Source of the DNA: Patescibacteria group bacterium | GTDB taxonomy: Bacteria; Patescibacteriota; Microgenomatia; Levybacterales; UBA12049 | NCBI GenBank assembly: GCA_026004395.1 | Contig: BPJB01000001.1 | Location: 905,226 to 969,225, forward strand | Direction: 5' to 3' | DNA length: 64,000 bases | In this document: piece after piece, positions 205 through 50,899 of the stretch | How positions within the stretch are numbered: the stretch's first letter is position 1 | How the letters are laid out: each line of letters starts with the position of its first letter | Notes under the pieces: generated by a model | The model's database searches: none | Told to the model about the DNA's origin: nothing | Seen by the model: only the letters and a program-made list of their open reading frames with translations | Made by a program: the position numbers and the translations under genes

Positions 205-211
205 CAAAATC

Positions 212-29925: not shown

Positions 29926-29935
29926 AAGGAGCATT

Positions 29936-32246: not shown

Positions 32247-32277
32247 ATTTTAATCTTCAACTATCTTTAACTTCTAA

Positions 32278-32313: not shown

Positions 32314-34304
32314 ATATTCAGAATGCTCACCTCAAACACACATTTTCCTATAGTAGTTGATAAAAAATATCTCATAGTTAGAAAGTGGGCGTTGTCCAAT
32401 TTTTACTTTAGAATATCAATCTTAGCCTTTTTCTTGAGACTACTTTCTCTCTGATCTAAAACTATTCTCTTATCAGCTCAAGCAACTACTTATTTTCACA
32501 TTCCTTCCTTCTGTTATAGCCATTATATTTGTCATCTTAGTCTTGTATCTGTTCTTCCAAAATCATTGCCCTTCGTTAATTTGTTGATCATCCCAATCTT
32601 CTTACTTGTGATCTCAATTTCTGCTTTCCTTCTTAAGCTAGAATAAAGATCCGCCTCATAACTGAGAAAAGCCAAAGAGAACATCTCTAACTCATTGTTC
32701 AAATCACACTTTAAATGTACCTCGAAATAACAATTAATACACTGCCACAGATCAATTTAAAGATTTGTTCCAAAGACATTCTCAAAAACAATCAAAGTAC
32801 AATTAGCATTCCTAATATCATTGTATATTTTCAGATTGGACAAATACAACTTAGAAAGAAGGTATGCTCAAATTACATTAGCCAATAACTTCTAATTTAA
32901 AAGTGCTGAAAAGAGGGAAATTGCAATTCTTTCACTCACTTGAATAAGACAACTTCTCTATCGCAGGAATAATCAATCCTCTAATATTATCTCTTTGTGG
33001 GTAGAATAAAGTATAAAAACAAATAAATGATTGATAAATCAATCTAAATTGCTAAATAAAAAAACTTATCAATTAATAACTCTCTCTGACAATTTTCAAT
33101 TTGTTTAAAAATGTTAAATATCATTTTTTGCTTAAAATAGGTAAATGTAGTTATTAATCAACAGTAACTCTAGATAGAAGGATTGCATTGTGAAAAAGAA
33201 AAATTCATTATTACCATTTTTCATTATCAACAAAATAAAAAAAACTTAGATTTTTAAAAAAATGAAAAAATCACATCCCTAGAAATATATCAAAATATCT
33301 CAACACGAAAGAAAGTAGAATATGTATTATTTTGATATATTATATATCTGTACCGATAACGACGTTTTTTTATCACACAACGAAAAAAATGAGAAAATTA
33401 ATGATGTTTTCATAGAAATTAACAACTTTTCACAAAAACTATTATCTTTTTTCCATTTATAGAAAAAATATCACAAAACATCAAAATATATCAAGATTAT
33501 TTTACTCTAGGATATTGACAAGTAAACTTAACAATACCTAAGCTATTAATAGATGTATTTTTATAAGAAGTATGATGAATAATTGGTATAATCTGTATAA
33601 TCTTGAGGCTAAAAACCAAAATCAAACACAGTTTTTTCACGACTCAACAAACGAGTTTGTGAAAAGTAAGCTCTACTTTGCGTCTGGGCTGTCTATATTT
33701 AATTTGGATCCCCTATCTTTGTCATTTATAACCTTTTTATCCTCTCAATCTTCGTTTCTGTCCTCTTGGCCTTTTATTTCTTATCCTATGCGCAGCAATA
33801 AACCTTCATCACCACTACTAAAAAAGACAGAGGCAATCTATCGCTTCAAGCTCCAAAACAATCGTTTTATGCCTGATACAGAACATATACAAACAAATCC
33901 AAGAAAGGAAGGTGACACTTTATGCGAACTCACAAAGTAGGTCAAGATCTAGTTTTTATAGCTTCCAAAAAATTCCCAAGAAGCTTTTTGTCCCAAAGCA
34001 GAAAGAATTCGATAACTTTCAAGTTGGATCTAAAATTCGATCAAGAGATAAATAATCATGATCTCATCAAACATAATAGGCTGAAAATCGGACTGCCAAC
34101 CAACTATGGGTTTGTTTGGTTTTCAGCAGCACTTATACTTAGTTACTTCATCAGCCAGTTGTACTTAATTTTCACAGGTAACTAAATATACAAACTTTAT
34201 TCTAGTCTTGCAAACAGATGGACTATTTTGTCTTAAAAAAACAAACACTAAAAATGAATTTGTTATCAATTTATCAATCATAAGTAAAAAATCTTAAATC
34301 AAAT

Positions 34305-37300
34305 ATGGACTTACTTGCCCGGTTCAAAAAATACTTAGAAGCACAGAAAAATCCGCCATCATACCTGACGGTTAAAAATTACCTATCAGATATTCGTCAA
34401 TTCATCACGTGGTATGAAACTACCCAACAGCAGGAATTCAAACCAAAGCAAATCACAAAACTTTTGATTGATGCGTATATCAACTACCGCAAGAACTTAA
34501 ATTCAGCTTCTGTCAGATCAACAGAAAGATACTTATCATCGCTTCGGAAGTTTTTCGACTTTCTTAAAGAGAAAAAATATATCAGCTCTAATCCACTCAA
34601 AGACCAAAACAGACTTACCAATAATCCTGATCCGTGGAAACTAAAAGCATTTAAAGATTATCTTTATGTCTATAACGCATCCAATCTAACTATAAAAAAC
34701 TATATCAATGATGTTAAACAGTTTCTGGACTGGGTTGCCAAATCTTCGGGAATAAAAACTCCAGATCAAGATACTATAACTTTTTGGAGAAATACCAAAA
34801 TTAATATATTTTCCTTGATTAATAAGGAGCTCTTACAAAAATACCGCAGCTATCTTCTCTCACAACTCAAATTATCAGAGAATCTTTATCTTGAAAAGCA
34901 GAACAAAGACATAAACACTACAACAATACAGCAATCAGGCAATGCAATCTCTCTATCAGATTCCAAAGAAGCAACTGCAACCGATTTGAATACCAAACAA
35001 GGACTCTCTATTCTTTCTATCAACCGCAAACTCTCATCACTGCGCAAATTCCTTTCATGGGCACAAGATGAAGGACTGGTACAAATTGATCTCTCTTCCC
35101 TCTCCAACATCAGACGCACTGCAGAGGTGAAAGCTATATCATCTGAAGATGCACAGCGCACCTTCACTGGCCCAAGTGCTGCAGGTGAATCAGAAAAAAC
35201 ACAACTGATTTCTCATCTTGCACCCTTAGATGACAGTTCTAAAGATAATCAAAATGACAAGTATCCAAGTCGCCAAATTGAAACTCTTGATACTGAACAA
35301 AAACATAAATACTCCTCATTCCCCCCTCTAAGACTTATCCAAAAGTTAGTAAAAGCTACTCTGCTAGGTATAGATCTGACAATCATCGCTGGTATTGCCA
35401 AATTACTTGAACAGATAACGTACATCAAATGGCTTGCCTCAGGTAAGCAGATATTTATAAAGAGTGCTAAAAAACAATTAGACTTTATTGTCAATAAAAA
35501 CATCAAATCCACGCTTGATAATACTCAACCAGAAAACCGATTTTCTAGTATTGTGGATCTAGTATCTAAAGAAAATCCAAGATTGGAAAAGAACTCAAAT
35601 ACTCAATATCATATACCAAATATCAAATCTCGCTTTCACCCCGCTCATCCAGAATTTACTACCCTGCCTCTGCATTACAGAATCTTGGGGCATCTGCGTC
35701 ATACTAGACCACAATGGTACATAAAGTATCATCAGTATCCGATCGTCCACTATTTCCATTTCGCAGCTCTTATCATCTTTATGAGTGTGATTGGATTTGG
35801 ACTGTACCGATCTTTCTTTGAGCAGCCACAAAAGGAAAAAACTCTTGCTGCTCCTCCAACAGCTCCTCCTAGGATCCTCTCTTTTCAAGGAAGACTAACA
35901 GATATTTCAGATAATCCCATCACCTCAGCTACACCGCTGAGATTTGCGATTTATAATGATCTCACTGCGTCAGGCTCAGCGCTACTTTGGCAGGAGGTGC
36001 AAACAGTTACACCAGACACAGATGGTGTCTTCTCTGTGTTGCTGGGAACAAATACTACTATTCCCTCTAGTGTCTTTACAGACAACTCAAGTCTATATCT
36101 TGGTGTTACGGTACAGACAGACCCTGAGCTTACACCTAGACAACAGATCGCAACAGTGGCATTTGCAGCCAACTCTGAGACGTTGCAGGGACTTTATCCT
36201 ATCACAGCAGCTGGTGCTGGCACATCCAATGTAGTTCTTGCCCTTGATTCATCCGGTAATTTGACAATTGGAGGATCAGCAACACCTAAATTTTCAGCAA
36301 CAGGCGGCGAATTTACCCTATCAGGTAATGTTCTCTCTCTGACAACAAATGTAGGATCCAATACCAACATCAATATTAGCCCAGATGGTAAAGGCGTAGT
36401 AAATATTATCAAACCGTTACAAAATACATCACTCAATAATAACATTACTACAGCTGCTGGAGCTGTAGAAGTAGATGATCTCTTCGCAGTTTTAGCCACA
36501 TCAAGTGGTCAATCAGCCTTTACTATCAATCAAAACGGTGCAGGACCACTGATTAGCGCATCAAGTAGTGGAATTGCTAAATTTACAGTTAATAACGATG
36601 GCTCTGCTTATTTTGCAGGAAATGTAGGCATAGGTATTACTTCACCTACTGGTATATTATCTTTAGCCAATTCTGCAGCTGGTGTTGAGATACTTTTCTC
36701 AGGTGCAAATGCGGCTAATATATATCAAAGTACGTCAGGACAATCTCTATATATTAATACCAATACCGGTGATCTCAGATTAGGAGCTAACGGCTCAGGA
36801 TCAAATGACTTAGTAATAAAATCTACTGGCAACATTGGTATTGGCAATACTACAGCTTCCAACTTCAAACTAGAAGTGACAGGCAATATTGGTCCATCCG
36901 CTGACGTGACCTATAATCTAGGATCACCATCTCTCAGATGGAACAATGTCTATGCCAACAACTTCATCGGCAGCGGCACAGGAGGTACCGCAGGCTATTG
37001 GCAATTAAATAACGGTGCGCTCTCTCCTGCATACAGCACCAATGATGTACTCATAGGAGGAACTGCTACCTCCAGTGCCAAATTTGGATTTATCAACGTC
37101 ATCGGCAGCGGCACACCTACTGCGACAATCTCTGGTAATTTTTCTATTCAAGTCCCAACTGGAACAAATCCTGCCATTAAAATTAATGCTCTCAATGGAG
37201 GATCTATCAACTTCCAAACAGCGACAACAGGACAAGGAGACGCTGGACTCACTTCACGTCTATTCATCAATAATAACGGCAACGTCGGCATCGGGACAAC

Positions 37301-38885
37301 AGCACCAGTACACAAACTAGAACTAGCCTCACACACAACAGCAGCTGGCGGCATAGGTTTTGGCACTGATGTAGAACTCTACAGAGGAGCTGCTAACACA
37401 CTCTACCTTGCCTCTGGTGACTCCCTCAACTTAGTATCAGGCAATCTACAAGTTGCTGGTACAACAGTTATCACCAGTGGTAGGATTATCCAGGCTGCCA
37501 ATGGATCTGCTGCCTCACCCTCATTCACCTTCGCATCCGACACCAACACAGGCATATTTGGGACTGGTAGTGATGTACTCGCTCTCTCAACTGCTGGTGT
37601 AGAAAGACTAAGAGTTGATGCCAGTGGCAATGTGGGTATTGGGACGACTGCACCAACTTCCAAACTAGACATCACCTCAACTGGTACAACCACCAACGGA
37701 TTAAATATCACAGCCAACTCCCTAACAACTGGAACAGGTTTCTCCCTCTCCTCCACATCAACAACTCTCACATCAGGTGGACTCCTCTCTCTTGACTGGT
37801 CCCCAACATCAGCCACTACAGCAACAGGTGATCTTCTCTCCATCAACATCGGTACCAACGGCAACATCGGCAAACTTTTCAACATCAAAGACGCAGGATC
37901 AAGTATCTTCTCCGTCTCAGAATCAACATTTGAAACATCTCTCCCCGTCAACTTCACCTCTCCAGGTGACGTCTCCATTGCCTACGACCTACTCTTCACC
38001 AACCCAACAGCCTCCTACATCAAATCATCAGCTCCTCTCTACATCCAAGCTGGTGAAACATTCAACTCCTCAGACCTCACACTTCAGACCTACAATGCTG
38101 GCAACGTCATCATTGACTCCCAAGCTCTTGTTACCAATCAAGCAGCCACCATCTCAGGTCAACTAGTTATCGGAACAACAAACCCCAACTCCGCTCACAT
38201 AGGCAACTTTTATCTGACCAACTCATCAACCTTTGGCAAAGCTCTTGCCATACTCAACCAAACAGAATCCGCTGACATCTTCACTGCCTCCTCCTCCGGC
38301 ACCACAAGATTTACCATATCCAACAACGGCACCCTCACTGCCACAGCTTACACAATAAACAATGGCTTACTATATACCAATACATCAGGTGTCATCTCTC
38401 AAGTTTCTGACACACCTGCCACCAACGAATGTCTCATCTTCAACGGATCTACCATCCTCTGGGATGCATGCTCAACTGGTGGAGGTGTCACTGGATCAGG
38501 CACCACCAACTACATACCCAAATGGAACTCTTCCTCCTCACTCACAGACTCAACCATCTTTGACAACGGCAACGTGGGTATTGGCACAACAACACCAACT
38601 ACCAAGTTAGAACTAGGCAGTGGTCAATTAGCAGTACCACTAGGATCAGCTACAACTCCATCCTACACCTTCAGCGGAGATCTCAATACCGGTATCTGGT
38701 CATCAGGAGCAGACACTCTCAACTTCTCCACTGGAGGATCTGAAAGAATAAGAATTATCAGCAACGGCAACGTCGGCATCGGGACGACGAGTCCAGCAGT
38801 AAAGCTACATGTTATAGGAACAGGTAAATTCGAAACAGGTCCTAATACATGGAACTGGATAGAAATAAATAGAGGCGGGGGATAA
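34305..38885 (+). CDS. giant membrane-anchored fibre protein 1: N-terminal tandem XerD-type SAM-like/core-binding domains, TM, then GNVGIGTT..KL.V tail-fibre-like repeats
   Basis: aa 1-100: LLARFKKYLEAQKNPPSYLTVKNYLSDIRQFITWYE...IDAYINYRKNLNSASVRSTERYLSSLRKFFDFLKEKKYISSNPL matches the phage-integrase N-terminal SAM-like domain. Two further partial copies follow (LKAFKDYLYVYNASNLTIKNYINDVKQFLDWV; SINRKLSSLRKFLSWAQDEGLV). There is no R..HxxR..Y catalytic domain. Strong TM at about aa 480 (IVHYFHFAALIIFMSVIGFGLY). About 1000 aa of Gly/Thr/Ser/Asn-rich repeats with recurring NGNVGIGTTAPxxKLEL. Confidence 0.75.
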   Translation: MDLLARFKKYLEAQKNPPSYLTVKNYLSDIRQFITWYETTQQQEFKPKQITKLLIDAYINYRKNLNSASVRSTERYLSSLRKFFDFLKEKKYISSNPLKDQNRLTNNPDPWKLKAFKDYLYVYNASNLTIKNYINDVKQFLDWVAKSSGIKTPDQDTITFWRNTKINIFSLINKELLQKYRSYLLSQLKLSENLYLEKQNKDINTTTIQQSGNAISLSDSKEATATDLNTKQGLSILSINRKLSSLRKFLSWAQDEGLVQIDLSSLSNIRRTAEVKAISSEDAQRTFTGPSAAGESEKTQLISHLAPLDDSSKDNQNDKYPSRQIETLDTEQKHKYSSFPPLRLIQKLVKATLLGIDLTIIAGIAKLLEQITYIKWLASGKQIFIKSAKKQLDFIVNKNIKSTLDNTQPENRFSSIVDLVSKENPRLEKNSNTQYHIPNIKSRFHPAHPEFTTLPLHYRILGHLRHTRPQWYIKYHQYPIVHYFHFAALIIFMSVIGFGLYRSFFEQPQKEKTLAAPPTAPPRILSFQGRLTDISDNPITSATPLRFAIYNDLTASGSALLWQEVQTVTPDTDGVFSVLLGTNTTIPSSVFTDNSSLYLGVTVQTDPELTPRQQIATVAFAANSETLQGLYPITAAGAGTSNVVLALDSSGNLTIGGSATPKFSATGGEFTLSGNVLSLTTNVGSNTNINISPDGKGVVNIIKPLQNTSLNNNITTAAGAVEVDDLFAVLATSSGQSAFTINQNGAGPLISASSSGIAKFTVNNDGSAYFAGNVGIGITSPTGILSLANSAAGVEILFSGANAANIYQSTSGQSLYINTNTGDLRLGANGSGSNDLVIKSTGNIGIGNTTASNFKLEVTGNIGPSADVTYNLGSPSLRWNNVYANNFIGSGTGGTAGYWQLNNGALSPAYSTNDVLIGGTATSSAKFGFINVIGSGTPTATISGNFSIQVPTGTNPAIKINALNGGSINFQTATTGQGDAGLTSRLFINNNGNVGIGTTAPVHKLELASHTTAAGGIGFGTDVELYRGAANTLYLASGDSLNLVSGNLQVAGTTVITSGRIIQAANGSAASPSFTFASDTNTGIFGTGSDVLALSTAGVERLRVDASGNVGIGTTAPTSKLDITSTGTTTNGLNITANSLTTGTGFSLSSTSTTLTSGGLLSLDWSPTSATTATGDLLSINIGTNGNIGKLFNIKDAGSSIFSVSESTFETSLPVNFTSPGDVSIAYDLLFTNPTASYIKSSAPLYIQAGETFNSSDLTLQTYNAGNVIIDSQALVTNQAATISGQLVIGTTNPNSAHIGNFYLTNSSTFGKALAILNQTESADIFTASSSGTTRFTISNNGTLTATAYTINNGLLYTNTSGVISQVSDTPATNECLIFNGSTILWDACSTGGGVTGSGTTNYIPKWNSSSSLTDSTIFDNGNVGIGTTTPTTKLELGSGQLAVPLGSATTPSYTFSGDLNTGIWSSGADTLNFSTGGSERIRIISNGNVGIGTTSPAVKLHVIGTGKFETGPNTWNWIEINRGGG

Positions 38886-39070: not shown

Positions 39071-42000
39071 TTGGTCATCCTCAATGAAACTGGTGATCAG
39101 GCCATACTCACTGCCAGTAAGTCAGGATCAACCAAGTTCCTCATTGACAACAACGGCAATGTTGGCATTGGCACCACTACTATCACCCCAGGCTTCACCT
39201 TCGACAATATCGGACGCGGCAGATTCTCAACAGGTCTATCAATCGGCACAACTGCCACCACCAACACACTCGAACTCTCAGGTACTCTCAACCAAACCTC
39301 AGGTCAAGTAACCTTCGGTGGAAACGTAGATGCTACATCAGGTCTTGACGTCACAGGTGCCTCCCTCACCGTTGGAGGATCAGCCTTCACAGTCACCACC
39401 GCTGGAGTCATAACTGGTACATCCCAAACACTCACCTCAACAGGCAACGCCCTCACACTCTCTGGTGCTGGTGCCAATATATCCTTCAGCGGTGCTGGTC
39501 TTGCCCAAATCACAACAGCTGCCTCCCAACACCTCGCCCTCATGCCAGGCGGCAACGTGGGTATTGGGACGACAACACCCCAAATGAAACTCGATGTAGC
39601 AGGAGCAATAGGAATATCAGGCACAACTGTCATTGATGCATCAAGAAACCTAACCAACATCGCAGGAGTATCAACACACCTTAACCCAACAACTGCCAAC
39701 ACCTACAACCTAGGAACAGGAACTGGCAATCAATACCTCAACCTCTACGCACAAAACATCTACCAAAATGGTATAGCAGTCTGTGACGCCAATGGCAACA
39801 ACTGCCCAACAGGTGGCAACGCTGGACCATGGACAGAAACAGCAGGCATTGTCTACCTAGACACCACCTCCAACAAAGTCTCAATAGGTGACACAACAAC
39901 AGAACACAAACTAGAAGTAGAAGGAGCAATCACCGGCAAAGCACTAGTCTCCCTCTGGGAAAAAGGTGATCAGGACATCTTAGTAGCCTCCAACTCTGCT
40001 ACCCCCACCAACGTCTTCAGAATTACCAATAACGGCTCAATTATCAGCAATGGCACTATTACCGCATCAACCACTAATACCATCAATAGTCTATCCATCA
40101 ACAATGCATCCATCACCAACGCAGTTAATCTAACAGCATCAGGAACAATCACCTTCTCAGGATTAACTCCCAACAGATTAGTCACCACTGATCCCTCATC
40201 CAATCTCACCACCTCCATCTCCTCAGCCAACGTCGCTGCATCAGTAACTGACGAAACAGGAACTGGCAATCTAGTCTTTAACACCTCACCCTCATTCACA
40301 ACCAGCATCACAACAGGATCAACCTCCTTCTCCCTCCTCAATACAACAGCAACTACCATCAACGCCTTCGGTGCAGCAACAACACTGAATATAGGAGCAA
40401 ACTCCGGAACCTTAACACTTGGCAATCCAACTGTTGTTGGCACTCAAACAACTCAAAATCTCTGGAATACCACTGCCACAACCATCAACTTTGCAGGAGC
40501 AGCAACTACTTTGAATATGGGAGCCTCTTCTGGAACAACAACCATCAACAATGCCACTCTCTCTCTACCTAATGCCACCTCAGTCAATATCGCAGGAGCA
40601 TCAGCTATCATCAACCTCTCCTCCTCAACTGGTGCCAAACAAATACAAACAGGTGGAACTACCAACTTAGCCCTCATGCCAGGCGGCAACGTCGGCATCG
40701 GGACGACGAATCCGGGGGCTAAACTTGAAGTTAACGGAACTAGTGATATTGTTCAACTGAAGGTAAAACCAAATGGAAGTCAAACAGCTAATCTTATCGA
40801 AGTTGGAACAGGTAACTTAACCTTTGCCATAAATGGATCCAATAATGTCGCTGTCTCTACTCTTCCTTCAACTGATACCTTCCTAAGAGTCGGTTCTACA
40901 GGATATATCTCATTTAACTCATCTTCTGCTGTCTATGGTATTACTACCACTCCTGTTAACTTTGGTTCAGGAAACGTAGTTGGTATCAGCGCAGGTCCTG
41001 TTACAAATAACTCAGGCGCTGTTTCTGCAATAACAAGTATCTATGGAAGTGTGCGCACAGCGGGTGGAGTATCCAATATTGTAGCAGCAGGAAAAATTTT
41101 TGAAGCTGGTTCCCCTACGATTTCATCAGGTGGTATTACTACTCTTACAGGACTTTATATCAATCAACAAAAAGTAAGTGGTGTGACAACTGGTTATGGT
41201 ATCTATCAAGTATCCTCTGCAGACCTGAATTACTTCGCTGGCAACGTCGGCATCGGGACGACAGCACCAGTCCACAAACTAGAACTAGCTACCCATACAA
41301 CAGCAGCTGGTGGTATAGGTTTTGGCACTGATGTAGAACTCTACAGAGGAGCTGCTAACACACTCTACCTTGCCTCTGGTGACTCTCTCAACTTAGTATC
41401 CGGCAATCTACAAGTTGCTGGTACAACAGTTATCACCAGTGGTAGGATCATCCAGGCTGCCAATGGATCTGCTGCCTCACCCTCATTCACCTTCGCCTCC
41501 GACACCAACACAGGCATATTTGGAACTGGCGCTGATGTACTTGCTCTCTCAACTGCTGGAGTAGAGAGACTAAGAGTTGATGCCAGCGGCAATGTGGGTA
41601 TAAACACCACCTCACCCTCCTATAAACTAGACGTCCAAGGTGGATCAGGCATAGTAGCTCAGTTTAGTGGCAGAGTCATAGGCGCTGATGCTATCAACAC
41701 CAATGAGTTCGTAACTCTAGGTCAACTCCAAGGAGGCAGTGGATCCCTCTGGCTTGATGGTGGAGATTATCTATATCCTAACTCCTCCTTTGCCACCAAT
41801 GTCATGGTACCATCAGGAAGACTAGGTATAGGTCTAACATCTACTCCTTTCAAATTAGAAATCAATGGCAATGATCCCGGCAAAGCCCTAGTCTCCCTCA
41901 ACTACACTGGCACTGATCAAAACATCTTAGTTGCCTCTCAATCTGGAAATCTAAAGTTTGCTGTAGGATACAATGGCAATATCACATCAGCAACTGGTAC

Positions 42001-45000
42001 CCAATGGCTTCCCACCTCAGATTCAACCACTGCTTTGAATATTGCCAATGCTGCAGGAACTTCATTCGTCACCTTTGACAGTACTAATCAACGTGTTGGA
42101 ATTGGGACTACAGCACCAACTACCAAGTTAGAACTAGGCAGTGGTCAATTAGCAGTACCACTAGGATCAGCTACAACTCCATCCTACACCTTCAGCGGAG
42201 ATCTCAATACCGGAATCTGGTCATCAGGAGCAGACACTCTCAACTTCTCCACAGGAGGATCTGAAAGAATAAGAATTATCAGCAACGGCAACGTCGGCAT
42301 CGGGACGACGGGACCTACGGCAAAACTACAAATTGAAGGCTCTGGGGCAAATATATTCCTTAGCAACACGACCTCAAAGTATATCACTTTTGGAGCAGCC
42401 GGCTTTGCTCCTCCTGCTATAGATAGTGCCGGAACCAAATTAATCCTTTACGGTAGTGCCAATAATAATACTAATAACCCAAGATATGCGATGGGGATTG
42501 CACCATCAGAATTGTGGTATTCAAGTGGAGGTGTGCATAGGTGGTATACAGAAAGCGCAGGAACATGGACACCAAGGATGACAATAGATACCTCCGGCAA
42601 CGTCGGCATCGGGACGACAGCTCCTCTTGAAAAACTAGATGTATCAGGAAATGCAACAGTCTCTGGCAATCTCACCTTCTCTGGAGCAAGAACAATCGCC
42701 TCAAGAGCATTCACTCAACTAACCATTGGTGATACCCAAACTGGAAATATCCTTTTCTCACCAGCATCTGGAAAACAAATAATGTTCTTCTCCTCATCCA
42801 ACTACATAGACTCCTCTGGAAACCTTGTTCTCGCTGGCACAACAGGCATCACAGCATCAGGAACAGGTGCTGGTCTTAATTTCTCAGGCACTGGAACCCA
42901 TATCATCCAAGCAAGCGCTGGCACTCTCCAAATCAACGCCTTCACTCTAGGAGGAGCCATAACAGGCAACAACCAAAACATCTCCAGCATCGGCAACATC
43001 ACAGCCAATACCAGTGCCAATACCATAACAGGATTTGGTACTATTGGAACATCAGGTACTACAGCATTCCAAGGTATAACAGCAACACTCAATGGTACTG
43101 GCAACGCTCTCACCCTCTCTGGTGCTGGCGCCAACATCGCCTTTACTGGTGCTGGTCTTGCACAGATCACAACAGCTGCCTCCCAACACCTCGCCCTCAT
43201 GCCAGGCGGCAACGTCGGTATAAACACCACCTCACCCTCCTACAAACTAGACGTCCAAGGTGGATCAGGCATAGTAGCTCAGTTTAGTGGCAGAGTCATA
43301 GGCGCTGATGCTATCAACACCAATGAGTTCGTAACTCTAGGTCAACTCCAAGGAGGCAGTGGATCCCTCTGGCTTGATGGTGGAGACTATCTCTACCCCA
43401 ACTCCTCCTTTGCCACCAATGTCATGGTACCATCAGGAAGACTAGGTGTTGGTCTCTCCTCCACTCCCTTCAAACTGGAAATAACAGGTGCTGATGCTGG
43501 CAAAGCTCTAGCTTCCTTCAACTACACAGGCACTGATCAGAACATCCTTGTTGCTTCACAATCTGGCACACTCAAATTTGCTGTTGGATACAATGGCAAC
43601 ATCACCTCTGCAACAGGTACCAAATGGCTACCTACCTCAGACTCAACCACTGCTTTGAATATAGCCAACTCCTCTGGTACCTCCTTCGTCACCTTTGACA
43701 CTACCAATCAGAGAGTTGGAATTGGGACGACGGCACCTGGAGCAACATTAGACGTATCTGGGACTGATACTTTATTGCAAGATATAAGGTTTGTAGAAGC
43801 AAGCGGAATTAACTATATCCAAAGTACTAACAATAGAGGAGCAAACACATGGCAACCTCTCCACATTGGTGCTGGTTACAGTGGAAGCGATATTAAATTA
43901 GCAATAGACTCTACAGGCAACGTCGGCATCGGGACAACGGGACCGGGACAAAGATTAGATGTACAAGCTTCTGGAACAAATGATGATAGTATAAGACTCA
44001 CCACTGGAAATGCAGATGGTGGTTTACGCTTGAAAAATACTGGCACCGGCGGAGTTGAGTGGTTTATTGATTCTACATCAGGCTCAAGTGGTTACGGACA
44101 AGGAAAACTTGCGTTCGTACCAAATGTTGGGAGCACTCCAACAATGACATTAAGTGGCAGCAACGTAGGTATAAGCACCACAGCTCCAGGGGCATTACTG
44201 GATGTTAGAGGCAACGTTAGATTTCTTTCACAGACCAATAATTATTATCGTACATTTTTTGAAGCTACTACTGAAGGCGGATGGAATTTTCCGTCAATGA
44301 TAGTAGGACAACAAAGAGGAATTGTTATAAAAGATCGATCTGGACTAAGCGGAGGATTATGGCTAAATGGAGGAGATTATAATGCCATTGGTTCAAGAGG
44401 CGGAATAGGAGTTGGTTTAGTTACTGATCTTGGAACATATTTTGCATTAACCTCTTCATCTTCATTCATTAGATTTCACGATGGACAAATTATATTTTAT
44501 GGTAATACAGGATTAACCCCAGGATCAACGTTTTCGCCAACAGAACGTATACGTATTGATGCAACCGGCAACGTCGGCATCGGGACGACGAATCCAACAG
44601 AAAAATTAGAAGTAGTCGGAGATGTGAGGCTTAGGTCTGATAGTGATGTAAATACAAGTGTAGGATCTGGAGTATTGCAAATTTTAAACTCTGGGGGCAC
44701 AGCTGGTATTCATCTTGATGCTAACGAAATCCAAGCTATAGGAAATGATCTCCATATCAACAATGATAATCAAGTTAATACACATATTAACAACTTAGTT
44801 CACATAACTACAGGCGGCAACGTCGGCATCGGGACGACGGGTCCGGTAGCGAAGTTGGATGTGGCAGGATTAATAAAAGGTTCAAGTGGTTTTAGCTCCG
44901 ATGGTACAGCGAAAGTATTAACATACAGGTTGTCGAATTCAACCACAAATAGTGGCGATAGGTATATTGGAAGATTTACCGGCTCTCAATCTAACAGAAT

Positions 45001-47911
45001 AAAAATTACTATCATTGGTCAGGACGGATATAGTGGCTCTTCGCTTGGTAGAGAAACGGTAATTTATGGACAGTTTAATAATAATAATGATTTAGAGGGT
45101 CAATGGTACAACCTTGGTGGTTCAAATGGGGGAGCAATAACAGATGTTAAAGTGGAAGATATGGGTGCCAATGATTTCAAAATATACATTACTCATGGAC
45201 AATATTTTGAAGCAGTAGTAACAGTTGAAATAAGCGGTGGAACATTTACACCAGCTGACTCTCTTACTTCACCAACTGCTTACACTTCGCTTACAAAGCA
45301 ATTTATAGTCTTAGCAAATACTGGTATTGGATATGAAAATCCAGGTACGGCGAAATTGGCAATAAATGGCAACGTCGGCATCGGGACGACGAATCCTTCT
45401 TACAAACTTGATGTTCAAGGAGGATCTGGAATTGTTGCTCAGTTCTCAGGAAGAGTCATAGGCGCTGATGCTGTCAACACCAATGAGTTTGTTACTCTAG
45501 GTCAACTCCAAGGTGGCAGTGGATCCCTCTGGCTTGATGGTGGAGACTATCTCTACCCCAACTCCTCCTTTGCCACCAATGTCATGGTACCATCAGGAAG
45601 ACTAGGTATAGGTCTAACATCTACTCCTTTCAAATTAGAGATCAGTGGCAATGATCCCGGCAAAGCCCTAGTCTCCCTCAACTACACTGGCACTGATCAA
45701 AACATCTTAGTTGCCTCTCAATCTGGAAATCTAAAGTTTGCTGTAGGATACAATGGCAATATCACATCAGCAACTGGTACCCAATGGCTTCCCACCTCAG
45801 ACTCAACCACTGCTTTGAATATTGCCAATGCTGCAGGAACTTCATTCGTCACCTTTGACAGTACTAATCAACGTGTTGGTATTGGGACTACAGCACCAAC
45901 TACCAAGTTAGAACTAGGCAGTGGTCAATTAGCAGTACCACTAGGATCAGCTACAACTCCATCCTACACCTTCAGCGGAGATCTCAATACCGGAATCTGG
46001 TCATCAGGAGCAGACACTCTCAACTTCTCCACAGGAGGATCTGAAAGAATAAGAATTATCAGCAACGGCAACGTCGGCATCGGGACGACAGCACCAGTCC
46101 ACAAACTAGAACTAGCTACCCATACAACAGCAGCTGGTGGTATAGGTTTTGGCACTGATGTAGAACTCTACAGAGGAGCTGCTAACACACTCTACCTTGC
46201 CTCTGGTGACTCTCTCAACTTAGTATCCGGCAATCTACAAGTTGCTGGTACAACAGTTATCACCAGTGGTAGGATCATCCAGGCTGCCAATGGATCTGCT
46301 GCCTCACCCTCATTCACCTTCGCCTCCGACACCAACACAGGCATATTTGGAACTGGCGCTGATGTACTTGCCATCTCAACTGCTGGAGTAGAGAGACTAA
46401 GAGTTGATGCCAGCGGCAATGTGGGTATAAACACCACCTCACCCTCCTATAAACTAGACGTCCAAGGTGGATCAGGCATAGTAGCTCAGTTTAGTGGCAG
46501 AGTCATAGGCGCTGATGCTATCAACACCAATGAGTTCGTAACTCTAGGTCAACTCCAAGGAGGCAGTGGATCCCTCTGGCTTGATGGTGGAGACTATCTC
46601 TACCCCAACTCCTCCTTTGCCACCAATGTCATGGTACCATCAGGAAGACTAGGTATAGGTCTAACATCTACTCCTTTCAAATTAGAAATCAATGGCAATG
46701 ATCCCGGCAAAGCCCTAGTCTCCCTCAACTACACTGGCACTGATCAAAACATCTTAGTTGCCTCTCAATCTGGAAATCTAAAGTTTGCTGTAGGATACAA
46801 TGGCAATATCACATCAGCAACTGGTACCCAATGGCTTCCCACCTCAGATTCAACCACTGCTTTGAATATTGCCAATGCTGCAGGAACTTCATTCGTCACC
46901 TTTGACAGTACTAATCAACGTGTTGGAATTGGGACTACAGCACCAACTACCAAGTTAGAACTAGGCAGTGGTCAATTAGCAGTACCACTAGGATCAGCTA
47001 CAACTCCATCCTACACCTTCAGCGGAGATCTCAATACCGGAATCTGGTCATCAGGAGCAGACACTCTCAACTTCTCCACAGGAGGATCTGAAAGAATAAG
47101 AATTATCAGCAACGGCAACGTCGGCATCGGGACGACGAATCCAGGGGCGAAACTAGAAATTTCAAATGGAACAATTGGTATACAAGTTGCTCCAGGACTA
47201 TATTGGAATGGTAGTTCTATGGTTTCAGATAATAACTGGGTTAATTTTGATATTCCAGGCACTAAAAACGTTAACTTTTCAGATAATTTTATAGTAACCG
47301 GTGGCAACGTCGGCATCGGGACGACGAGTCCTGAAGCCAAACTTAATGTCCAAGGTGGAAGTATAAGAGTTGGATCCTCTTCAGGAAATTATGAAGAGAT
47401 TACGGGTGGCGATATTGGTATAAGACATCGCTGGGTAAACGATCCTGCAGACAACTATAGATTTTGGCTAGCAGCTAACGCAGGTATTGCCCTCGGGCTT
47501 ACTGGTAATGACGGTGGCGCCCTACGACTTGCAGATAGCGGAGCAAATACAGTGACTTTCTATGTCAAACAAAGTGGTATAGGAATTCTAAGAGCTAGTA
47601 GCAATGATGTCCTTGCTTTTACCTCTTCCGGCAACGTCGGCATCGGGACAACAGTACCAGCGTATAAATTGGATGTTGTTGGAGAGATTAGGGCATTTGG
47701 TAGTGGAGATACAAGATACAGAGTATATTCTAGTGGGACTACTGGTTGGGTAGGTTACGAATTAAGATCAAGCGGTTTAGATGCATTTGCTGGTGGTATA
47801 TTTAGAAACAATGCTGATAATAACAGAGTATCTATTTGGTCTAAAAATCAAGAAGCAATAAGTATTTTAGATTCCGGCAACGTCGGCATCGGGACGACGG
47901 GACCGGGGTAG
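39071..47911 (+). CDS. giant fibre protein 2 (at least 2946 aa) built from tail-fibre-like repeats; the frame is open from 38984, has no ATG, and uses a TTG at 39071
   Basis: About 20 repeats containing GNVGIGTT(A/S/G/N)P..KL(D/E)V, long Gly/Thr/Ala/Ser-rich beta-strand-type sequence. The reading frame continues upstream of the annotated start to a TAG at 38981-38983, which suggests former continuity with ORF 1. Confidence 0.75.
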   Translation: MVILNETGDQAILTASKSGSTKFLIDNNGNVGIGTTTITPGFTFDNIGRGRFSTGLSIGTTATTNTLELSGTLNQTSGQVTFGGNVDATSGLDVTGASLTVGGSAFTVTTAGVITGTSQTLTSTGNALTLSGAGANISFSGAGLAQITTAASQHLALMPGGNVGIGTTTPQMKLDVAGAIGISGTTVIDASRNLTNIAGVSTHLNPTTANTYNLGTGTGNQYLNLYAQNIYQNGIAVCDANGNNCPTGGNAGPWTETAGIVYLDTTSNKVSIGDTTTEHKLEVEGAITGKALVSLWEKGDQDILVASNSATPTNVFRITNNGSIISNGTITASTTNTINSLSINNASITNAVNLTASGTITFSGLTPNRLVTTDPSSNLTTSISSANVAASVTDETGTGNLVFNTSPSFTTSITTGSTSFSLLNTTATTINAFGAATTLNIGANSGTLTLGNPTVVGTQTTQNLWNTTATTINFAGAATTLNMGASSGTTTINNATLSLPNATSVNIAGASAIINLSSSTGAKQIQTGGTTNLALMPGGNVGIGTTNPGAKLEVNGTSDIVQLKVKPNGSQTANLIEVGTGNLTFAINGSNNVAVSTLPSTDTFLRVGSTGYISFNSSSAVYGITTTPVNFGSGNVVGISAGPVTNNSGAVSAITSIYGSVRTAGGVSNIVAAGKIFEAGSPTISSGGITTLTGLYINQQKVSGVTTGYGIYQVSSADLNYFAGNVGIGTTAPVHKLELATHTTAAGGIGFGTDVELYRGAANTLYLASGDSLNLVSGNLQVAGTTVITSGRIIQAANGSAASPSFTFASDTNTGIFGTGADVLALSTAGVERLRVDASGNVGINTTSPSYKLDVQGGSGIVAQFSGRVIGADAINTNEFVTLGQLQGGSGSLWLDGGDYLYPNSSFATNVMVPSGRLGIGLTSTPFKLEINGNDPGKALVSLNYTGTDQNILVASQSGNLKFAVGYNGNITSATGTQWLPTSDSTTALNIANAAGTSFVTFDSTNQRVGIGTTAPTTKLELGSGQLAVPLGSATTPSYTFSGDLNTGIWSSGADTLNFSTGGSERIRIISNGNVGIGTTGPTAKLQIEGSGANIFLSNTTSKYITFGAAGFAPPAIDSAGTKLILYGSANNNTNNPRYAMGIAPSELWYSSGGVHRWYTESAGTWTPRMTIDTSGNVGIGTTAPLEKLDVSGNATVSGNLTFSGARTIASRAFTQLTIGDTQTGNILFSPASGKQIMFFSSSNYIDSSGNLVLAGTTGITASGTGAGLNFSGTGTHIIQASAGTLQINAFTLGGAITGNNQNISSIGNITANTSANTITGFGTIGTSGTTAFQGITATLNGTGNALTLSGAGANIAFTGAGLAQITTAASQHLALMPGGNVGINTTSPSYKLDVQGGSGIVAQFSGRVIGADAINTNEFVTLGQLQGGSGSLWLDGGDYLYPNSSFATNVMVPSGRLGVGLSSTPFKLEITGADAGKALASFNYTGTDQNILVASQSGTLKFAVGYNGNITSATGTKWLPTSDSTTALNIANSSGTSFVTFDTTNQRVGIGTTAPGATLDVSGTDTLLQDIRFVEASGINYIQSTNNRGANTWQPLHIGAGYSGSDIKLAIDSTGNVGIGTTGPGQRLDVQASGTNDDSIRLTTGNADGGLRLKNTGTGGVEWFIDSTSGSSGYGQGKLAFVPNVGSTPTMTLSGSNVGISTTAPGALLDVRGNVRFLSQTNNYYRTFFEATTEGGWNFPSMIVGQQRGIVIKDRSGLSGGLWLNGGDYNAIGSRGGIGVGLVTDLGTYFALTSSSSFIRFHDGQIIFYGNTGLTPGSTFSPTERIRIDATGNVGIGTTNPTEKLEVVGDVRLRSDSDVNTSVGSGVLQILNSGGTAGIHLDANEIQAIGNDLHINNDNQVNTHINNLVHITTGGNVGIGTTGPVAKLDVAGLIKGSSGFSSDGTAKVLTYRLSNSTTNSGDRYIGRFTGSQSNRIKITIIGQDGYSGSSLGRETVIYGQFNNNNDLEGQWYNLGGSNGGAITDVKVEDMGANDFKIYITHGQYFEAVVTVEISGGTFTPADSLTSPTAYTSLTKQFIVLANTGIGYENPGTAKLAINGNVGIGTTNPSYKLDVQGGSGIVAQFSGRVIGADAVNTNEFVTLGQLQGGSGSLWLDGGDYLYPNSSFATNVMVPSGRLGIGLTSTPFKLEISGNDPGKALVSLNYTGTDQNILVASQSGNLKFAVGYNGNITSATGTQWLPTSDSTTALNIANAAGTSFVTFDSTNQRVGIGTTAPTTKLELGSGQLAVPLGSATTPSYTFSGDLNTGIWSSGADTLNFSTGGSERIRIISNGNVGIGTTAPVHKLELATHTTAAGGIGFGTDVELYRGAANTLYLASGDSLNLVSGNLQVAGTTVITSGRIIQAANGSAASPSFTFASDTNTGIFGTGADVLAISTAGVERLRVDASGNVGINTTSPSYKLDVQGGSGIVAQFSGRVIGADAINTNEFVTLGQLQGGSGSLWLDGGDYLYPNSSFATNVMVPSGRLGIGLTSTPFKLEINGNDPGKALVSLNYTGTDQNILVASQSGNLKFAVGYNGNITSATGTQWLPTSDSTTALNIANAAGTSFVTFDSTNQRVGIGTTAPTTKLELGSGQLAVPLGSATTPSYTFSGDLNTGIWSSGADTLNFSTGGSERIRIISNGNVGIGTTNPGAKLEISNGTIGIQVAPGLYWNGSSMVSDNNWVNFDIPGTKNVNFSDNFIVTGGNVGIGTTSPEAKLNVQGGSIRVGSSSGNYEEITGGDIGIRHRWVNDPADNYRFWLAANAGIALGLTGNDGGALRLADSGANTVTFYVKQSGIGILRASSNDVLAFTSSGNVGIGTTVPAYKLDVVGEIRAFGSGDTRYRVYSSGTTGWVGYELRSSGLDAFAGGIFRNNADNNRVSIWSKNQEAISILDSGNVGIGTTGPG
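41240..42310 (+). repeat. 1.07-kb direct repeat inside giant gene 2 (copy A; copy B at 46066-47137, about 99% identical)
   Basis: Read directly: both copies begin GGCAACGTCGGCATCGGGACGACAGCACCAGTCCACAAACTAGAACTAGCTACCCATACAACAGCAGCTGG and end ...AGAATAAGAATTATCAGCAACGGCAACGTCGGCATCGGGACGACG. Only a handful of synonymous differences, for example GATTATCTATATCCTAAC versus GACTATCTCTACCCCAAC. Confidence 0.85.
45364..46088 (+). repeat. third copy (about 700 bp) of the distal part of the 1.07-kb repeat
   Basis: 45430-46076 matches 41650-42300 and 46475-47125 almost exactly (..GTCATAGGCGCTGATGCT[G/A]TCAACACCAATGAGTT..). Confidence 0.8.
46066..47137 (+). repeat. 1.07-kb direct repeat inside giant gene 2 (copy B)
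   Basis: See copy A at 41240-42310. Confidence 0.85.
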
Positions 47912-48575
47912 AAACTTCATGTAATCGGAAACTACAACAGATAACTAATGATTTAGAAGCTATTGACCCCAGCAACCGTATTCTTTGTAGCATCAAATGA
48001 TACTCTATCAACTACATGGCTCATCGGTAAAAACTCCAGGAATCAATTAATACTTAAAGATAAAGATCCAAATACTACTCTTACTGGTCAACGGCAGGCA
48101 CAGTTGCACTTTCAAACACACAACGGCACTGATTGATGGAACTGAATATAATTTTGCAACAGCTGCATTAACTAGTACAAGCGACTACTGTTGTGATTGA
48201 AATTACTAATCCCAATGGCCTTAACGCAGTTTACTCAAATGCAGCATGGTTTACGAGTGTTTTCTTTAGGAACAATTATGCCACAGCTCTATAACAGTTG
48301 ACGCACGTTATGATGGACATCCAGGATCCTATCAAACAATTTGGTCAACAACAACAAACGATCAAAGAACATGGCTAAGTTCAGCTGTCACGACCACGCT
48401 CACGGGATGACAGTCCCAGAAAATCACATCGTTGGTGGATCACTTACCTTGGTACCAGCGCTGGAGTCCACTTAACTACGGATGGACTCCAAACAGTAGA
48501 ACGGCAACTATCTCAGTATGCTCTTGAACTAGGAACAACATTTTATCGGTCATCAACTTTCCTACTGGTAGCTGC
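47912..48575 (+). pseudogene. degenerate, stop-riddled remnant of fibre-repeat coding sequence between giant ORFs 2 and 3
   Basis: Directly after the TAG at 47909-47911 the sequence still encodes KLHVIGNYNR, the same KLHVIG motif that ends ORF 1. It then gives protein-like translation interrupted by many stops in all frames. Confidence 0.4.
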
Positions 48576-50147: not shown

Positions 50148-50181
50148 CACAATCTCTGCTACTACATCAGCATCTACAGCA

Positions 50182-50715: not shown

Positions 50716-50899
50716 TCTTCTGGACGTAAATGGTGGCGTCATCATTCGCGATCGAGCTGCAATTCAAGGGACAGGCGCAAGCTGTAGCGCTCCTGGTGCT
50801 GGAACTGCAGGCTGGTGGTATGCTGATGCAGGAGATTGTTCAACTGTCTTTGCCGGGATAAATACTGCTACCAACGGCTCTGAGGTCTTTGGAATATAC

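Follow-up and report, generated by a model that had tools for sequence, protein, structure and literature searches.

What is a pair of recombinase-type DNA-binding domains doing at the inner end of a giant surface fibre? This question is raised by the 1526-aa ORF 34305..38885 of the window, by which we mean the whole 64,000-nucleotide stretch of Patescibacteria DNA that was analysed. A preliminary description of the ORF had recognised the SAM-like domain of tyrosine recombinases in its first 100 residues. We find that the protein belongs to a family conserved in Levybacteria, which are tiny uncultured bacteria, and that its cytoplasmic head is encoded by nt 34305-35800. The head is composed of two core-binding (CB) domains, an acidic linker, a basic juxtamembrane motif, a helix and an A-x-A site, and leads into a fibre resembling tail fibres and MATs (Table 1).

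Table 1. Features of the fibre locus and of the region ahead of it, in window coordinates.
Feature	Position (nt)	Strand	Residues (aa)	Remarks
Putative sigma-70-like promoter, conserved	33515..33544	+		TTGACA, 18 nt, TAAGCT; conserved ACTCTAGG ahead
Tandem 9-bp repeat, candidate operator/leader element of the fibre operon	33577..33613	+		GAATAATTG, GTATAATCT, GTATAATCT, then conserved TGAGGCTAAA
Small ORF between repeat element and fibre gene	33922..34185	+		87 aa; C-terminal hydrophobic helix
CB1, first core-binding (SAM-like) domain	34305..34604	+	1-100	four helices: 2-12, 20-41, 52-66, 70-89
CB2, second complete core-binding domain	34626..35108	+	~108-268	four-helix
Lineage-specific insert inside CB2	34893-35018	+	~197-238	~40 aa, between helices C and D
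Acidic, variable linker	35109..35309	+	269-335	predicted disordered; pLDDT <50; family median net charge -2
Conserved YSxFPPLRLxQK motif and long amphipathic/hydrophobic helix pair	35310..35513	+	336-403	helices 340-378 and 384-403; pLDDT ~75-80
Invariant basic and aromatic juxtamembrane motif	35697..35753	+	465-483	H-T-R-P-x-W-Y-x-x-Y-H-x-Y-x-x-x-H-Y; cytoplasmic side
Single strongly hydrophobic helix	35754..35819	+	484-505
Candidate signal-peptidase-I-like site, conserved	35841..35852	+	513-516	A/V/T-L-A, then A
Beta-rich fibre base	35859..36194	+		LSFQGRLTD...PRQQIATVAFA; resembles N-terminal domain of Bdellovibrio MAT fibres
Fibre shaft repeats	36195..38885	+		premature end without family C-terminal domain
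Four more fibre ORFs, other frames	39071..54586	+		39071..47911, 48576..50147, 50182..50715, 50900..54586

The N-terminal core-binding (SAM-like) domain of XerC/XerD-type recombinases is present in the window protein. The Pfam family Phage_int_SAM_1 matches the full protein with E=5e-17 and aa 1-110 by themselves with E=7e-11, and SAM_4 and SAM_5 are also above their cut-offs, which makes all three of the models that had been named for checking this domain. In the AF2 model the pLDDT is >90 over aa 1-100 and ~85-94 over the CB2 helices, and the fold as well as the sequence of the CB pair match the DNA-binding CB domain; the pTM of 0.38 means that the mutual placement of the domains is not predicted. 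The absence of the catalytic domain, also noticed earlier, is borne out: Phage_integrase (PF00589, with the R-K-H-R-H/W-Y active site) has no match in the window protein even at E<=1, and the XerC and XerD NCBIfam equivalog models align over positions 2-93 of ~295 only, with 59-65 bits against cut-offs of ~330. Public records annotate the family only as 'site-specific integrase', which a CB-fibre protein cannot be without a catalytic domain.

The preliminary description had counted two additional partial copies of the domain, three in all, and here we come to a different result. CB1 and CB2 are two complete domains (33% identical, E=3e-8), and the 'partials' are CB2, which Pfam splits into two stretches with the ~40-aa insert in between, as the alignment shows. 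We therefore rejected a third copy, Pfam's third 'stretch' being the second half of CB2. In the family alignment the insert is found only in the window protein. The acidic linker differs in length and sequence across the family. The region of aa 336-403 that follows contains a second, weaker hydrophobic/amphipathic helix (aa 340-378, Kyte-Doolittle 1.54), which is kept in most members, and the whole region is missing from a short-linker subgroup (P0017, P0020, P0024, P0026). Cys/His motifs are absent from aa 1-270, and a phmmer search of the PDB with aa 1-282 found no match. The best PDB profile match, chain 14 of 9i5v ('RaiA', Porphyromonas gingivalis, E=5e-8), proved misleading: what aligns to the CB profile is the N-terminus of a ~400-aa deposited chain, of which only 34 residues, at the ribosome hpf site, are modelled.

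Conservation was analysed in 143 members at <=50% identity. The near-invariant residues concentrate at the starts of helix B and helix D in CB1 and CB2, where both domains have TxKNYxxDxxxFxxW motifs (helix B) and RKLSSLRKF motifs (helix D). Basic positions are kept in CB1 (K24, R75, R81, K82) and in CB2 (K131, R181, R241, K242, R247, K248), and K131, N132, Y133, D136, W143, R241, K242, L243 and S244 of CB2 are conserved at 98-100%. The median net charge is +4 for each CB. Judged by these alignments, the CB module is under strong purifying selection. In XerC/D-type recombinases it is helices of the core-binding domain that enter the DNA major groove (PMC3537659).

In the juxtamembrane motif R468, P469, W471, Y472 and Y475 are 100% conserved. 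The hydropathy maximum of the whole protein lies at aa 480-501 (Kyte-Doolittle 2.0), in agreement with the one strongly hydrophobic helix that had been placed at about aa 480, and AF2 predicts a helix spanning 479-506. The helix of aa 484-505 could be a membrane anchor; the alternative is that it forms the h-region of a signal peptide whose n-region is 480 aa long. The number of K+R per 20 aa is 4.1 preceding the helix and 1.85 following it (n=140), and the juxtamembrane segment has a net charge of +13. This charge bias and composition support a bitopic protein with the N-terminus inside, as had been proposed with a cytoplasmic N-terminus. At the A-x-A site, position 513 is A, V, T or I, position 515 is A (84%), G or S, and position 516 is A (70%), with Pro at 512 and 508. 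This site lies ~10 aa ahead of the fibre base, and a similar spacing separates the base from the cleavage-type sites of relatives whose signal peptide is plain. The predicted signal-peptidase-like site may part the CB module from the fibre once it is exported.

The rest of the ORF had been described as an extracellular fibre, and this is borne out: tail-fibre PHROGs (9942, 18345 and 28766) match it with E=2e-26. The 1526-aa ORF is only a piece of a ~20-kb locus. The PHROG matches cover short repeat stretches only (model positions 153-205 of 1178), a pattern that points to common repeat modules and no orthology. Bdello_MAT_N (NCBIfam NF053851) matches aa 519-586 weakly (model positions 11-78 of 162, E=5e-6, 26.4 bits against a cut-off of 60). 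Homologue comparison shows that fibre bases outside CPR (Patescibacteria) come straight after a signal peptide. The fibres of the family are 1,000-5,500 aa long, and 100 complete relatives, which are single uninterrupted genes, terminate in ...SFT[IV]...NW[WLI][IV][IV]N. The C-terminus of the 1526-aa ORF is unlike these, and the family ending is reached at 54586 after out-of-frame fibre ORFs, where ORF 50900..54586 closes with the motif ...GSFTIRIPVLQTSDVKVNWWIIN; the 1526-aa ORF is therefore a fragment of a protein. Together, by their frames and ending, the five fibre ORFs (ORF1 included; frames 0, 2, 0, 1, 2) are one broken or mis-assembled fibre locus of ~20 kb. Single frameshifts would account for the junctions 3/4 and 4/5; the situation at 1/2 and 2/3 is more complex. 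The locus is rich in direct repeats, which measure 178-300 nt or more and are 72-100% identical. The window copy is broken after aa 1526; it may have become a pseudogene, or the break may have arisen in the assembly. An S74 domain was not detected in the window, and ORF 50900..54586 has no Pfam match. The adjoining giant LamG gene is likewise broken, at its 3' end.

The CB module is common to at least 256 protein clusters (50% identity) and 131 species-level genomes, and its named carriers are nearly all Levybacteria (Microgenomates, CPR). The fibre gene has a fixed place on the chromosome and is syntenic throughout Levybacteria, nearly always with one locus per genome, in a cell-envelope neighbourhood whose conserved members include WxL-interacting-protein-like and Ig-like surface proteins. 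Five of five loci from Microgenomates other than Levybacteria have the module split between CB2 helices B and C, giving a soluble protein and a fibre protein, so the CB2 halves must at least also serve as a protein-protein interface. P0185 from Roizmanbacteria was considered as a CB-less relative and rejected, as a frameshifted CB is encoded directly upstream. The preliminary description could not assign the architecture to a described family. In the open-access full-text literature on SAM-like domains with transmembrane segments, CB-only proteins and CPR giant proteins we likewise found no account of the conserved CB-CB-helix-fibre design.

The region upstream of the gene offers a candidate target for the CB pair. 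In the putative promoter the TTGACA columns are invariant in a 12-locus alignment and visible also in an anchored listing of 76 loci. The -10 element is TATTCT in most relatives and TAAGCT in the window; a generic promoter scan misses the window promoter because this -10 matches at just 3 of 6 positions. Downstream of it, the repeat GTATAATCN is found in 2-3 units ahead of nearly every family member and is specific to this gene. It lies upstream on the + strand in 75 of 80 related loci, and the exact tandem repeat occurs nowhere else in 1.2 Mb of flanks except as the inverted copy of L023. The 8-mer GTATAATC has two occurrences in the 64 kb window, both in the tandem repeat, for which the chance expectation is 0.05. 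In a metagenome scan with 120 repeat matches, the CB-module gene was the sole recurring downstream gene family. Other Microgenomates orders also have the tandem repeat (L201, L202, L203). The number of units does not follow the number of CBs, since L201 has one CB and two units, and L205 has no tandem element within the 975 nt available upstream. The core of the repeat is TATAAT, the sigma-70 -10 consensus, and the repeat may therefore simply be a conserved (double) promoter.

Other readings of this region were dropped. The repeat element has 0 predicted conserved RNA pairs, which led us to abandon an RNA structure, and Rfam has no match on 31000-35000. A conserved leader peptide, 'YNLYNLEAK' by translation of the repeat, was rejected because neither start codons nor frames are kept and, at the most frequent spacings, a TAA falls inside the repeat, in frame with the ATG of the gene. 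L023 has the tandem repeat reversed, downstream of the same promoter, but we regard this as an anecdote rather than as a sign of an invertible promoter, as L023 alone is inverted and has no clear flanking inverted repeats. The small ORF has weak, position-specific tblastn matches in the leaders of L001 (E=9e-4), L002, L012, L023, L064 and L050, with the common motif W(L/V)SIA(I/V)TLSFV(I/L)SQ. It has no Pfam match and probably encodes a real small membrane protein.

We suggest, with a probability of about 0.4, that the CB pair has kept its ability to bind nucleic acid (DNA) and, either held at the membrane's inner face or set free on export, links the fibre to transcription. This reading is based on the match of the CB pair in fold and sequence, the conserved basic residues of helices B and D, the net charge of +4 and the N-in topology, together with the tie between repeat and gene, the synteny, the near-single locus and the envelope neighbourhood. 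The protein would resemble a ToxR-style membrane-bound DNA-binding protein, with the fibre as its outside part, and the production, export or engagement of the fibre would be coupled to transcription through the CB pair. Points on the other side are the TATAAT core, the mismatch of units and CBs in L201, the lack of the element in L205, the split CB2, the broken window copy and the low pTM. That the target is the tandem GTATAATCN in the promoter/leader region of the family's own operon, leading to autoregulation, is a more tentative proposal than DNA binding itself. In a variant, signal peptidase would cut the A-x-A site and leave one CB-CB-helix stub in the membrane per exported fibre; the stub could act at the membrane or be freed by intramembrane proteolysis, and its amount would count the exported fibres. 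In its fullest form, which we regard as quite improbable, the fibre would report to the chromosome: the hydrophobic helix would be a signal peptide with 480 aa as its n-region, cleavage between A515 and A516 would free the fibre, and the CB-CB stub would bind the tandem repeat and scale operon transcription with the fibres exported or engaged with a host cell. Sister Microgenomates would then have a two-gene version, in which a soluble CB protein docks on the fibre tail and completes the split CB.

Binding to DNA might not be what the CB pair has been kept for. It could be re-used for protein docking and hold the foot of the fibre to a cytoplasmic partner such as the cytoskeleton, the divisome, a secretion or assembly factor or a resident Xer recombinase, positioning or stabilising the fibre. 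CB domains make protomer contacts in recombinase tetramers, and the split loci imply that the CB2 halves associate as proteins. RodZ, with a cytoplasmic helix-turn-helix, one membrane helix and a periplasmic domain, is likewise a bitopic envelope protein whose cytoplasmic N-terminus adopts a DNA-binding-type fold, and this helix-turn-helix binds MreB rather than DNA. RodZ is a model for docking only, however, and its outside part is small, unlike the window fibre. We consider docking unlikely, as conservation falls on those basic and polar positions of helices B and D that typify DNA-binding CB domains, both CBs are net positive, and the only conserved gene neighbours encode extracellular proteins, with no candidate partner among them. 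The head might also be passive, a 480-aa folded cytoplasmic stopper or topogenic leader, or an anchor against pulling, that is maybe discarded after signal-peptidase cleavage. The conserved A-x-A lies where plain-signal-peptide relatives have their cleavage site, the WxL-interacting-protein-like and Ig-like neighbours could retain a released fibre, and the fibre base is similar to the N-domain of MATs, for which unaided binding to a surface element has been proposed (PMC10769870). But a stopper needs neither two domains with near-invariant DNA-contact-type motifs over >250 clusters (50% identity) nor an invariant juxtamembrane motif, and we doubt this explanation as well.

A role in recombination is very improbable. 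A catalytically dead CB pair could guide or block a resident tyrosine recombinase at sites within or close to the fibre locus and so control inversion of the promoter element or shuffling of fibre cassettes, that is, phase or antigenic variation. The richness of the locus in direct repeats and the reversed repeat of L023 would fit, and the anchor-less fibre ORFs could be silent cassettes. Against this, the inverted state is seen in 1 of 76 loci, flanking inverted repeats do not stand out, no recombinase gene lies within the window, and the complete relatives are uninterrupted. Finally, the five fibre ORFs and the broken LamG gene could raise the suspicion of a mis-joined ORF or a decaying, functionless integrase remnant. 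We give this next to no weight. The CB-fibre fusion is uninterrupted in the window and found in >140 sequenced relatives and 131 species-level genomes, so that the misjoin by the ORF caller considered in the preliminary description did not occur, and synteny and residue conservation contradict an accident. The strong purifying selection in 143 members and the synteny across Levybacteria also speak against its suggestion of an integrase fragment made by insertion of the fibre gene, at least as a local or recent event.

The proposed DNA-binding, membrane-held design can be compared with known systems. XerC, XerD, XerA and lambda-type tyrosine recombinases have the same N-terminal core-binding (SAM-like) domain; the window family lacks their catalytic domain, and its CB is duplicated in tandem and followed by a membrane helix and a fibre. 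ToxR/TcpP/CadC-type one-component regulators and proteolysis-released anti-sigma factors have the bitopic layout that is predicted for the window family: a cytoplasmic N-terminal domain binds DNA or a regulator, and a single membrane helix joins it to an outside domain exposed to the environment. In the window family a CB fold replaces the (OmpR-type) winged helix of the ToxR type, a giant fibre replaces the small sensor, and regulation is only proposed. The ALOG (LSH/G1) plant transcription factors have a CB-like helical bundle without a catalytic domain, as in the window protein, and a zinc-ribbon insert (HxxxC ... CxC) between helices 2 and 3 (PMC3537659), which the window protein does not have. 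The phage repressors MrpR and SroF keep the entire recombinase fold, unlike the window CB pair. Neither these repressors nor ALOG are membrane-tethered or fused to an extracellular domain. On the outer side, the MAT fibres of Bdellovibrio (PMC10769870) and phage tail fibres are comparable in that a beta-rich base comes straight after the export signal and is followed by a long repetitive shaft with GNVGIGTT-type motifs; the similarity of the window base to the conserved beta-rich MAT N-domain of ~130 aa is weak. MATs are trimers with an S74 chaperone-protease or a variable tip at their C-terminus. They begin with an ordinary signal peptide, whereas in the window protein 480 aa with folded cytoplasmic domains come ahead of the export helix.

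The prevailing view is that CPR/Patescibacteria live on the surface of other cells, but little is known about how they sense and regulate attachment. A conserved giant fibre with two inner DNA-binding-type domains, encoded nearly always at one locus per genome, is a testable candidate for a direct wire from surface to genome. Hundreds of database entries are misnamed 'site-specific integrase', and the mobile-element counts in CPR genomes are inflated as a result. If the DNA-binding reading is true, the family would contribute a bacterial example to the few recombinase core-binding domains that have taken on non-recombination roles. In the fullest, improbable form of that reading it would represent a new class of transcription control, coupled to export or contact, in CPR episymbionts.

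In this analysis we establish the architecture, conservation, likely topology and genomic setting of the fibre protein, together with a DNA element associated with its gene. In Pfam, the 1526-aa ORF matches Phage_int_SAM_1 (E=5e-17) as well as SAM_4 and SAM_5, all above the curated cut-offs. Residues 1-110 by themselves reach E=7e-11 with Phage_int_SAM_1, which bears out the preliminary description of the first ~100 aa as a SAM-like recombinase domain. The XerC and XerD models of NCBIfam align only over the first 93 of their ~295 positions, well under their cut-offs, and no catalytic-domain family is matched even at E<=1 in the Pfam and NCBIfam profile searches of the ORF; the catalytic domain is missing, as had been claimed. 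In an AlphaFold2 model built from 19 homologues, pLDDT lies at 86-96 for most of residues 1-100 and at ~85-94 for the second domain's helices. The core-binding (CB, SAM-like) assignment of the N-terminal module (the CB module) and the lack of a catalytic domain are therefore solid. What had been taken for two further partial copies is, in the alignment, one complete second domain (CB2) with a ~40-residue insert (aa ~197-238) between helices C and D, exclusive to the window protein, and HMMER reports CB2 in two pieces because of this insert. The two domains share 33% identity (E=3e-8) and are therefore a tandem duplication.

CB2 is followed by a variable acidic linker with predicted disorder and then by a conserved YSxFPPLRLxQK motif and a long amphipathic helix (aa 340-378, Kyte-Doolittle hydropathy, KD, 1.54). 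Next to an invariant RPxWYxxYHxYxxxHY motif (aa 468-483) lies the most hydrophobic segment of the protein, at about aa 484-505 (KD 2.0), in agreement with the helix noticed earlier at ~aa 480. The fibre starts with a beta-rich base (LSFQGRLTD...PRQQIATVAFA) that weakly matches the N-terminal domain of Bdellovibrio mosaic adhesive trimer (MAT) fibres (26 bits, cut-off 60), and the shaft repeats beyond it, recognised as fibre from the start, match phage tail-fibre PHROGs (E=2e-26). The protein likely has its N-terminus inside and the fibre outside, because there is no N-terminal signal sequence at the start of the ORF, the 20 residues before the hydrophobic helix hold 4.1 K+R versus 1.85 after it (n=140), the segment from CB2 to the helix has a median net charge of +13 and is positive in all members, and the composition of the C-terminal 1000 aa is of the secreted type (3.3% K+R, 47% G+S+T+N).

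A word-indexed search with aa 1-520 returns 27 proteins, the named ones labelled 'site-specific integrase, partial', and a full HMMER scan of 1.84 billion cluster representatives returns at least 256 proteins at E<=1e-30, up to 6048 aa long. Most of the best 150 HMMER relatives cover the whole CB module; the remainder are contig-end fragments or short-linker variants. A survey for the same fusion, an idea of the preliminary description, finds the module in these clusters and in 131 relatives from a scan of one genome per species, where the lineage, if the record states one, is almost always Levybacteria or Patescibacteria and the locus is nearly always single per genome. Among 143 members with a mutual identity of 50% or lower, helix B (TxKNYxxDxxxFxxW) and helix D ((N)RKLSSLRKF) are kept in both CB domains, and K24, R75, R81, K82, K131, R181, R241, K242, R247 and K248 are 86-100% conserved. 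This conservation excludes a decaying integrase remnant.

Coordinates of the features in the window and of the split CB modules in related loci, with the kind of junction
Feature	Position	Strand	Basis or remark
Fibre ORF1, 1526 aa, uninterrupted	34305..38885	+	ORF reading
CB1, complete four-helix domain	aa 1-100	+	alignment with relatives
CB2, complete four-helix domain	aa ~108-268	+	alignment with relatives
Candidate signal peptidase I-like motif, A/V/T-L-A↓A	aa 513-516, nt 35841-35852	+	conservation
Fibre ORF	39071..47911	+	
Fibre ORF	48576..50147	+	
Fibre ORF	50182..50715	+	
Fibre ORF with family C-terminal domain	50900..54586	+	
87-aa ORF with C-terminal hydrophobic helix, between repeat element and fibre gene	33922-34185	+	
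Surface-protein cluster upstream of fibre gene	26267-32246		conserved, syntenic
comEA (HHH_3 + SLBB) and comEC DNA-uptake genes	19644-22443	-	conserved synteny, ~12 kb upstream
LamG/DUF2341/PA14 protein, 1545 aa, N-terminal membrane helix, after fibre locus, with the two LamG-like ORFs at its 3' end	55009-60272	+	
IS200-type transposase, past LamG ORFs	60397-61041	-	
Split CB module	L205 976-1428		2 nt between called genes
Split CB module	L207 1-344		genes overlap
Split CB module	L203 2391-3001		125 nt with GC-rich hairpin
Split CB module	L204 2025-2574		about 270 nt
Split CB module	L206 1-1448		920 nt with 23S_rRNA_IVP-family gene

The hydrophobic helix and fibre base as query find relatives in Shapiro-, Roizman- and Woesebacteria, and relatives outside the Patescibacteria in which the fibre base directly follows an ordinary signal peptide. 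In all five resolved Microgenomates loci outside Levybacteria, which come from Shapiro-, Roizman-, Woese- and other Microgenomates, two genes encode the CB module and part at one point, between helices B and C of CB2. A first ORF carries CB1 and CB2 helices A-B, and a second carries the rest of CB2 (helices C-D) together with the hydrophobic helix and the fibre. No two of the five junctions are alike, which indicates that the two-gene state is real and tolerated. The lineage of a further locus (L201) has one CB domain only.

The gene order comEC, comEA, leuS, a membrane protein, four surface-protein genes, a divergent Ig-domain membrane protein and the CB-fibre gene is conserved. Two of the surface-protein genes have weak WxL-interacting-protein peptidoglycan-binding similarity, and a TPR membrane protein is often found 3' of the CB-fibre gene. 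The surface cluster of the window includes two proteins with Y(I/V)ATPTF ends and the divergent Ig-domain (Big_6/Big_1) membrane protein. Synteny between its members and the fibre gene is kept in about 30-64 of 80 loci, the number varying from gene to gene, and the Big_1 gene adjoins the fibre gene also in other Microgenomates (L201-L204). comEC consists of two ORFs, one with the Competence and one with a metallo-beta-lactamase domain; it may be chance that comEA/comEC lie close to a fibre whose tail is of a DNA-binding type. Many related contigs (L002, L004-L008 and others) are titled 'uncultured Gammaproteobacteria bacterium' in GenBank/ENA; their gene content and synteny match Levybacteria, and the names look like placeholders.

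The C-terminus of the 100 complete relatives, whose median length is 1520 aa, reads ...SFT[IV]......NW[WLI][IV][IV]N, and ORF1 ends differently (...NWIEINRGGG). The family ending (GSFTIRIPVLQTSDVKVNWWIIN) closes the last of five fibre ORFs, and ORF1 is therefore the first piece of the gene. The five lie in frames 0, 2, 0, 1 and 2, and two of their junctions fit single frameshifts while two are more complex. Window 38885-54586 is packed with direct repeats (178-300 nt or more, 72-100% identical), and this part of the locus could be a pseudogene, a set of (silent) cassettes or an assembly problem. G+C is 42-48% over the fibre ORFs (window 36000-54000) versus about 30-39% in the flanks, which probably reflects the Gly/Ala/Thr/Ser-rich repeats and not foreign origin. 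The LamG gene also seems broken at its 3' end, into two LamG-like ORFs (59650..59934 and 59931..60272).

The AT-rich spacer upstream of the fibre gene (32247-34304) has a single stretch common to related loci (window 33515-33613). It holds an invariant promoter-like TTGACA-N18-TA..CT pair and, ~30-45 nt beyond, three tandem 9-nt units (window 33577-33603) reading GAATAATTG, GTATAATCT and GTATAATCT, then TGAGGCTAAA. After the pair, the related loci L001-L080 have 2-3 tandem GTATAATCN units and CTCGAGGCTA; a TTTTCACA motif is often found on both sides of the repeats. There are no other GTATAATC octamers in the 64-kb window beyond the element, and the chance expectation for the tandem is 0.05 occurrences. 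With up to 2 mismatches, 75 of the 80 loci have it ahead of the gene and on its coding strand, usually 27-90 nt and sometimes 130-1086 nt from the ATG (704-720 nt in the window). Three of the five exceptional loci have little or no sequence upstream, in L035 the element stands ahead of a LamG giant gene (a homologue of the one in the window), which precedes the fibre gene, and in L023 the three units are inverted. The 1.2 Mb of flanks hold no exact tandem match elsewhere besides this inverted copy. Metagenome contigs give 120 exact matches, mostly expected by chance for a short AT-rich pattern, and the sole recurring downstream gene family among them is the CB-module gene. The element also precedes relatives in other Microgenomates orders (L201, L202, L203), and throughout Levybacteria and in part of the other Microgenomates its presence is specific to the CB-fibre gene. 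It has no conserved RNA structure and no match in Rfam. A plain alternative is a conserved double promoter, because the repeat core is the sigma-70 -10 consensus. The 87-aa ORF has weak position-matched homologues in long-leader loci (L001, L002, L012, L023, L064, L050), and it probably encodes a small membrane protein that is transcribed together with the fibre.

The most likely reading, with a probability of about 0.4, is that the CB pair still binds DNA, as suggested by the conserved basic and polar positions where helices B and D begin. In XerC/D-type proteins, B and D are the helices of the major groove (PMC3537659). Plant ALOG factors use the same fold in gene regulation without a catalytic domain, and the SPbeta-type phage repressors MrpR and SroF regulate genes with the integrase-like fold kept (PMC10927535; bioRxiv 10.1101/2025.11.27.690993). 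The split inside CB2 implies an association of its two halves as proteins, and that the fibre's tail can serve as a dock for a soluble protein bearing CB1. Protein docking in the manner of RodZ is an unlikely rival for the pair itself. Equally unlikely is a passive stopper or leader.

At 10-14 residues past the hydrophobic helix, 96 members keep a candidate cleavage motif, A/V/T/I - L/F - A(84%)/G/S - A(70%), accompanied by prolines at -4 and -8. It agrees with the -3/-1 rule for signal peptidase I and lies ~10 residues ahead of the fibre base, the position of the cleavage site in plain-signal-peptide relatives. The motif and its position suggest that the hydrophobic helix may form the core of a signal peptide whose n-region is 480 residues long, and that the fibre may come free of the CB module once exported.

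A role in recombination or phase variation is very improbable. The L023 copy (9533-9557, three AGATTATAC units, the same promoter upstream, gene 450 nt on) could be an inversion, and no clear flanking inverted repeats are seen there. We hardly credit an artefact. The broken fibre does not touch the CB module, which is intact in the window and in many complete relatives.

A targeted search of the open-access literature found no description of the CB-helix-fibre architecture, in line with the initial impression that no described family has it. The protein is no tyrosine recombinase, since a search for the catalytic domain finds none. It is not a strict MAT member because its score is under the cut-off and it has no plain signal peptide, nor is it an ALOG protein, as it lacks the zinc ribbon. 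Separately, the top PDB sequence match of the CB profile is chain 14 of the P. gingivalis ribosome 9i5v, labelled 'RaiA' (roughly 400 aa, 34 residues modelled), whose first ~100 residues align with E=5e-8; the chain may consist of RaiA joined to an N-terminus like that of recombinases.

If the CB pair binds DNA, it could act at the inner face of the membrane of a very small cell like ToxR-type regulators, and the tandem repeat would be its obvious candidate site. Use of the A-x-A site would leave one stub per exported fibre, and export would then feed back in a simple way. The surprising architecture is real and widespread, but any function is inferred: at most, the protein would work as a one-component regulator of the membrane-bound kind, to which a MAT-like fibre is joined.
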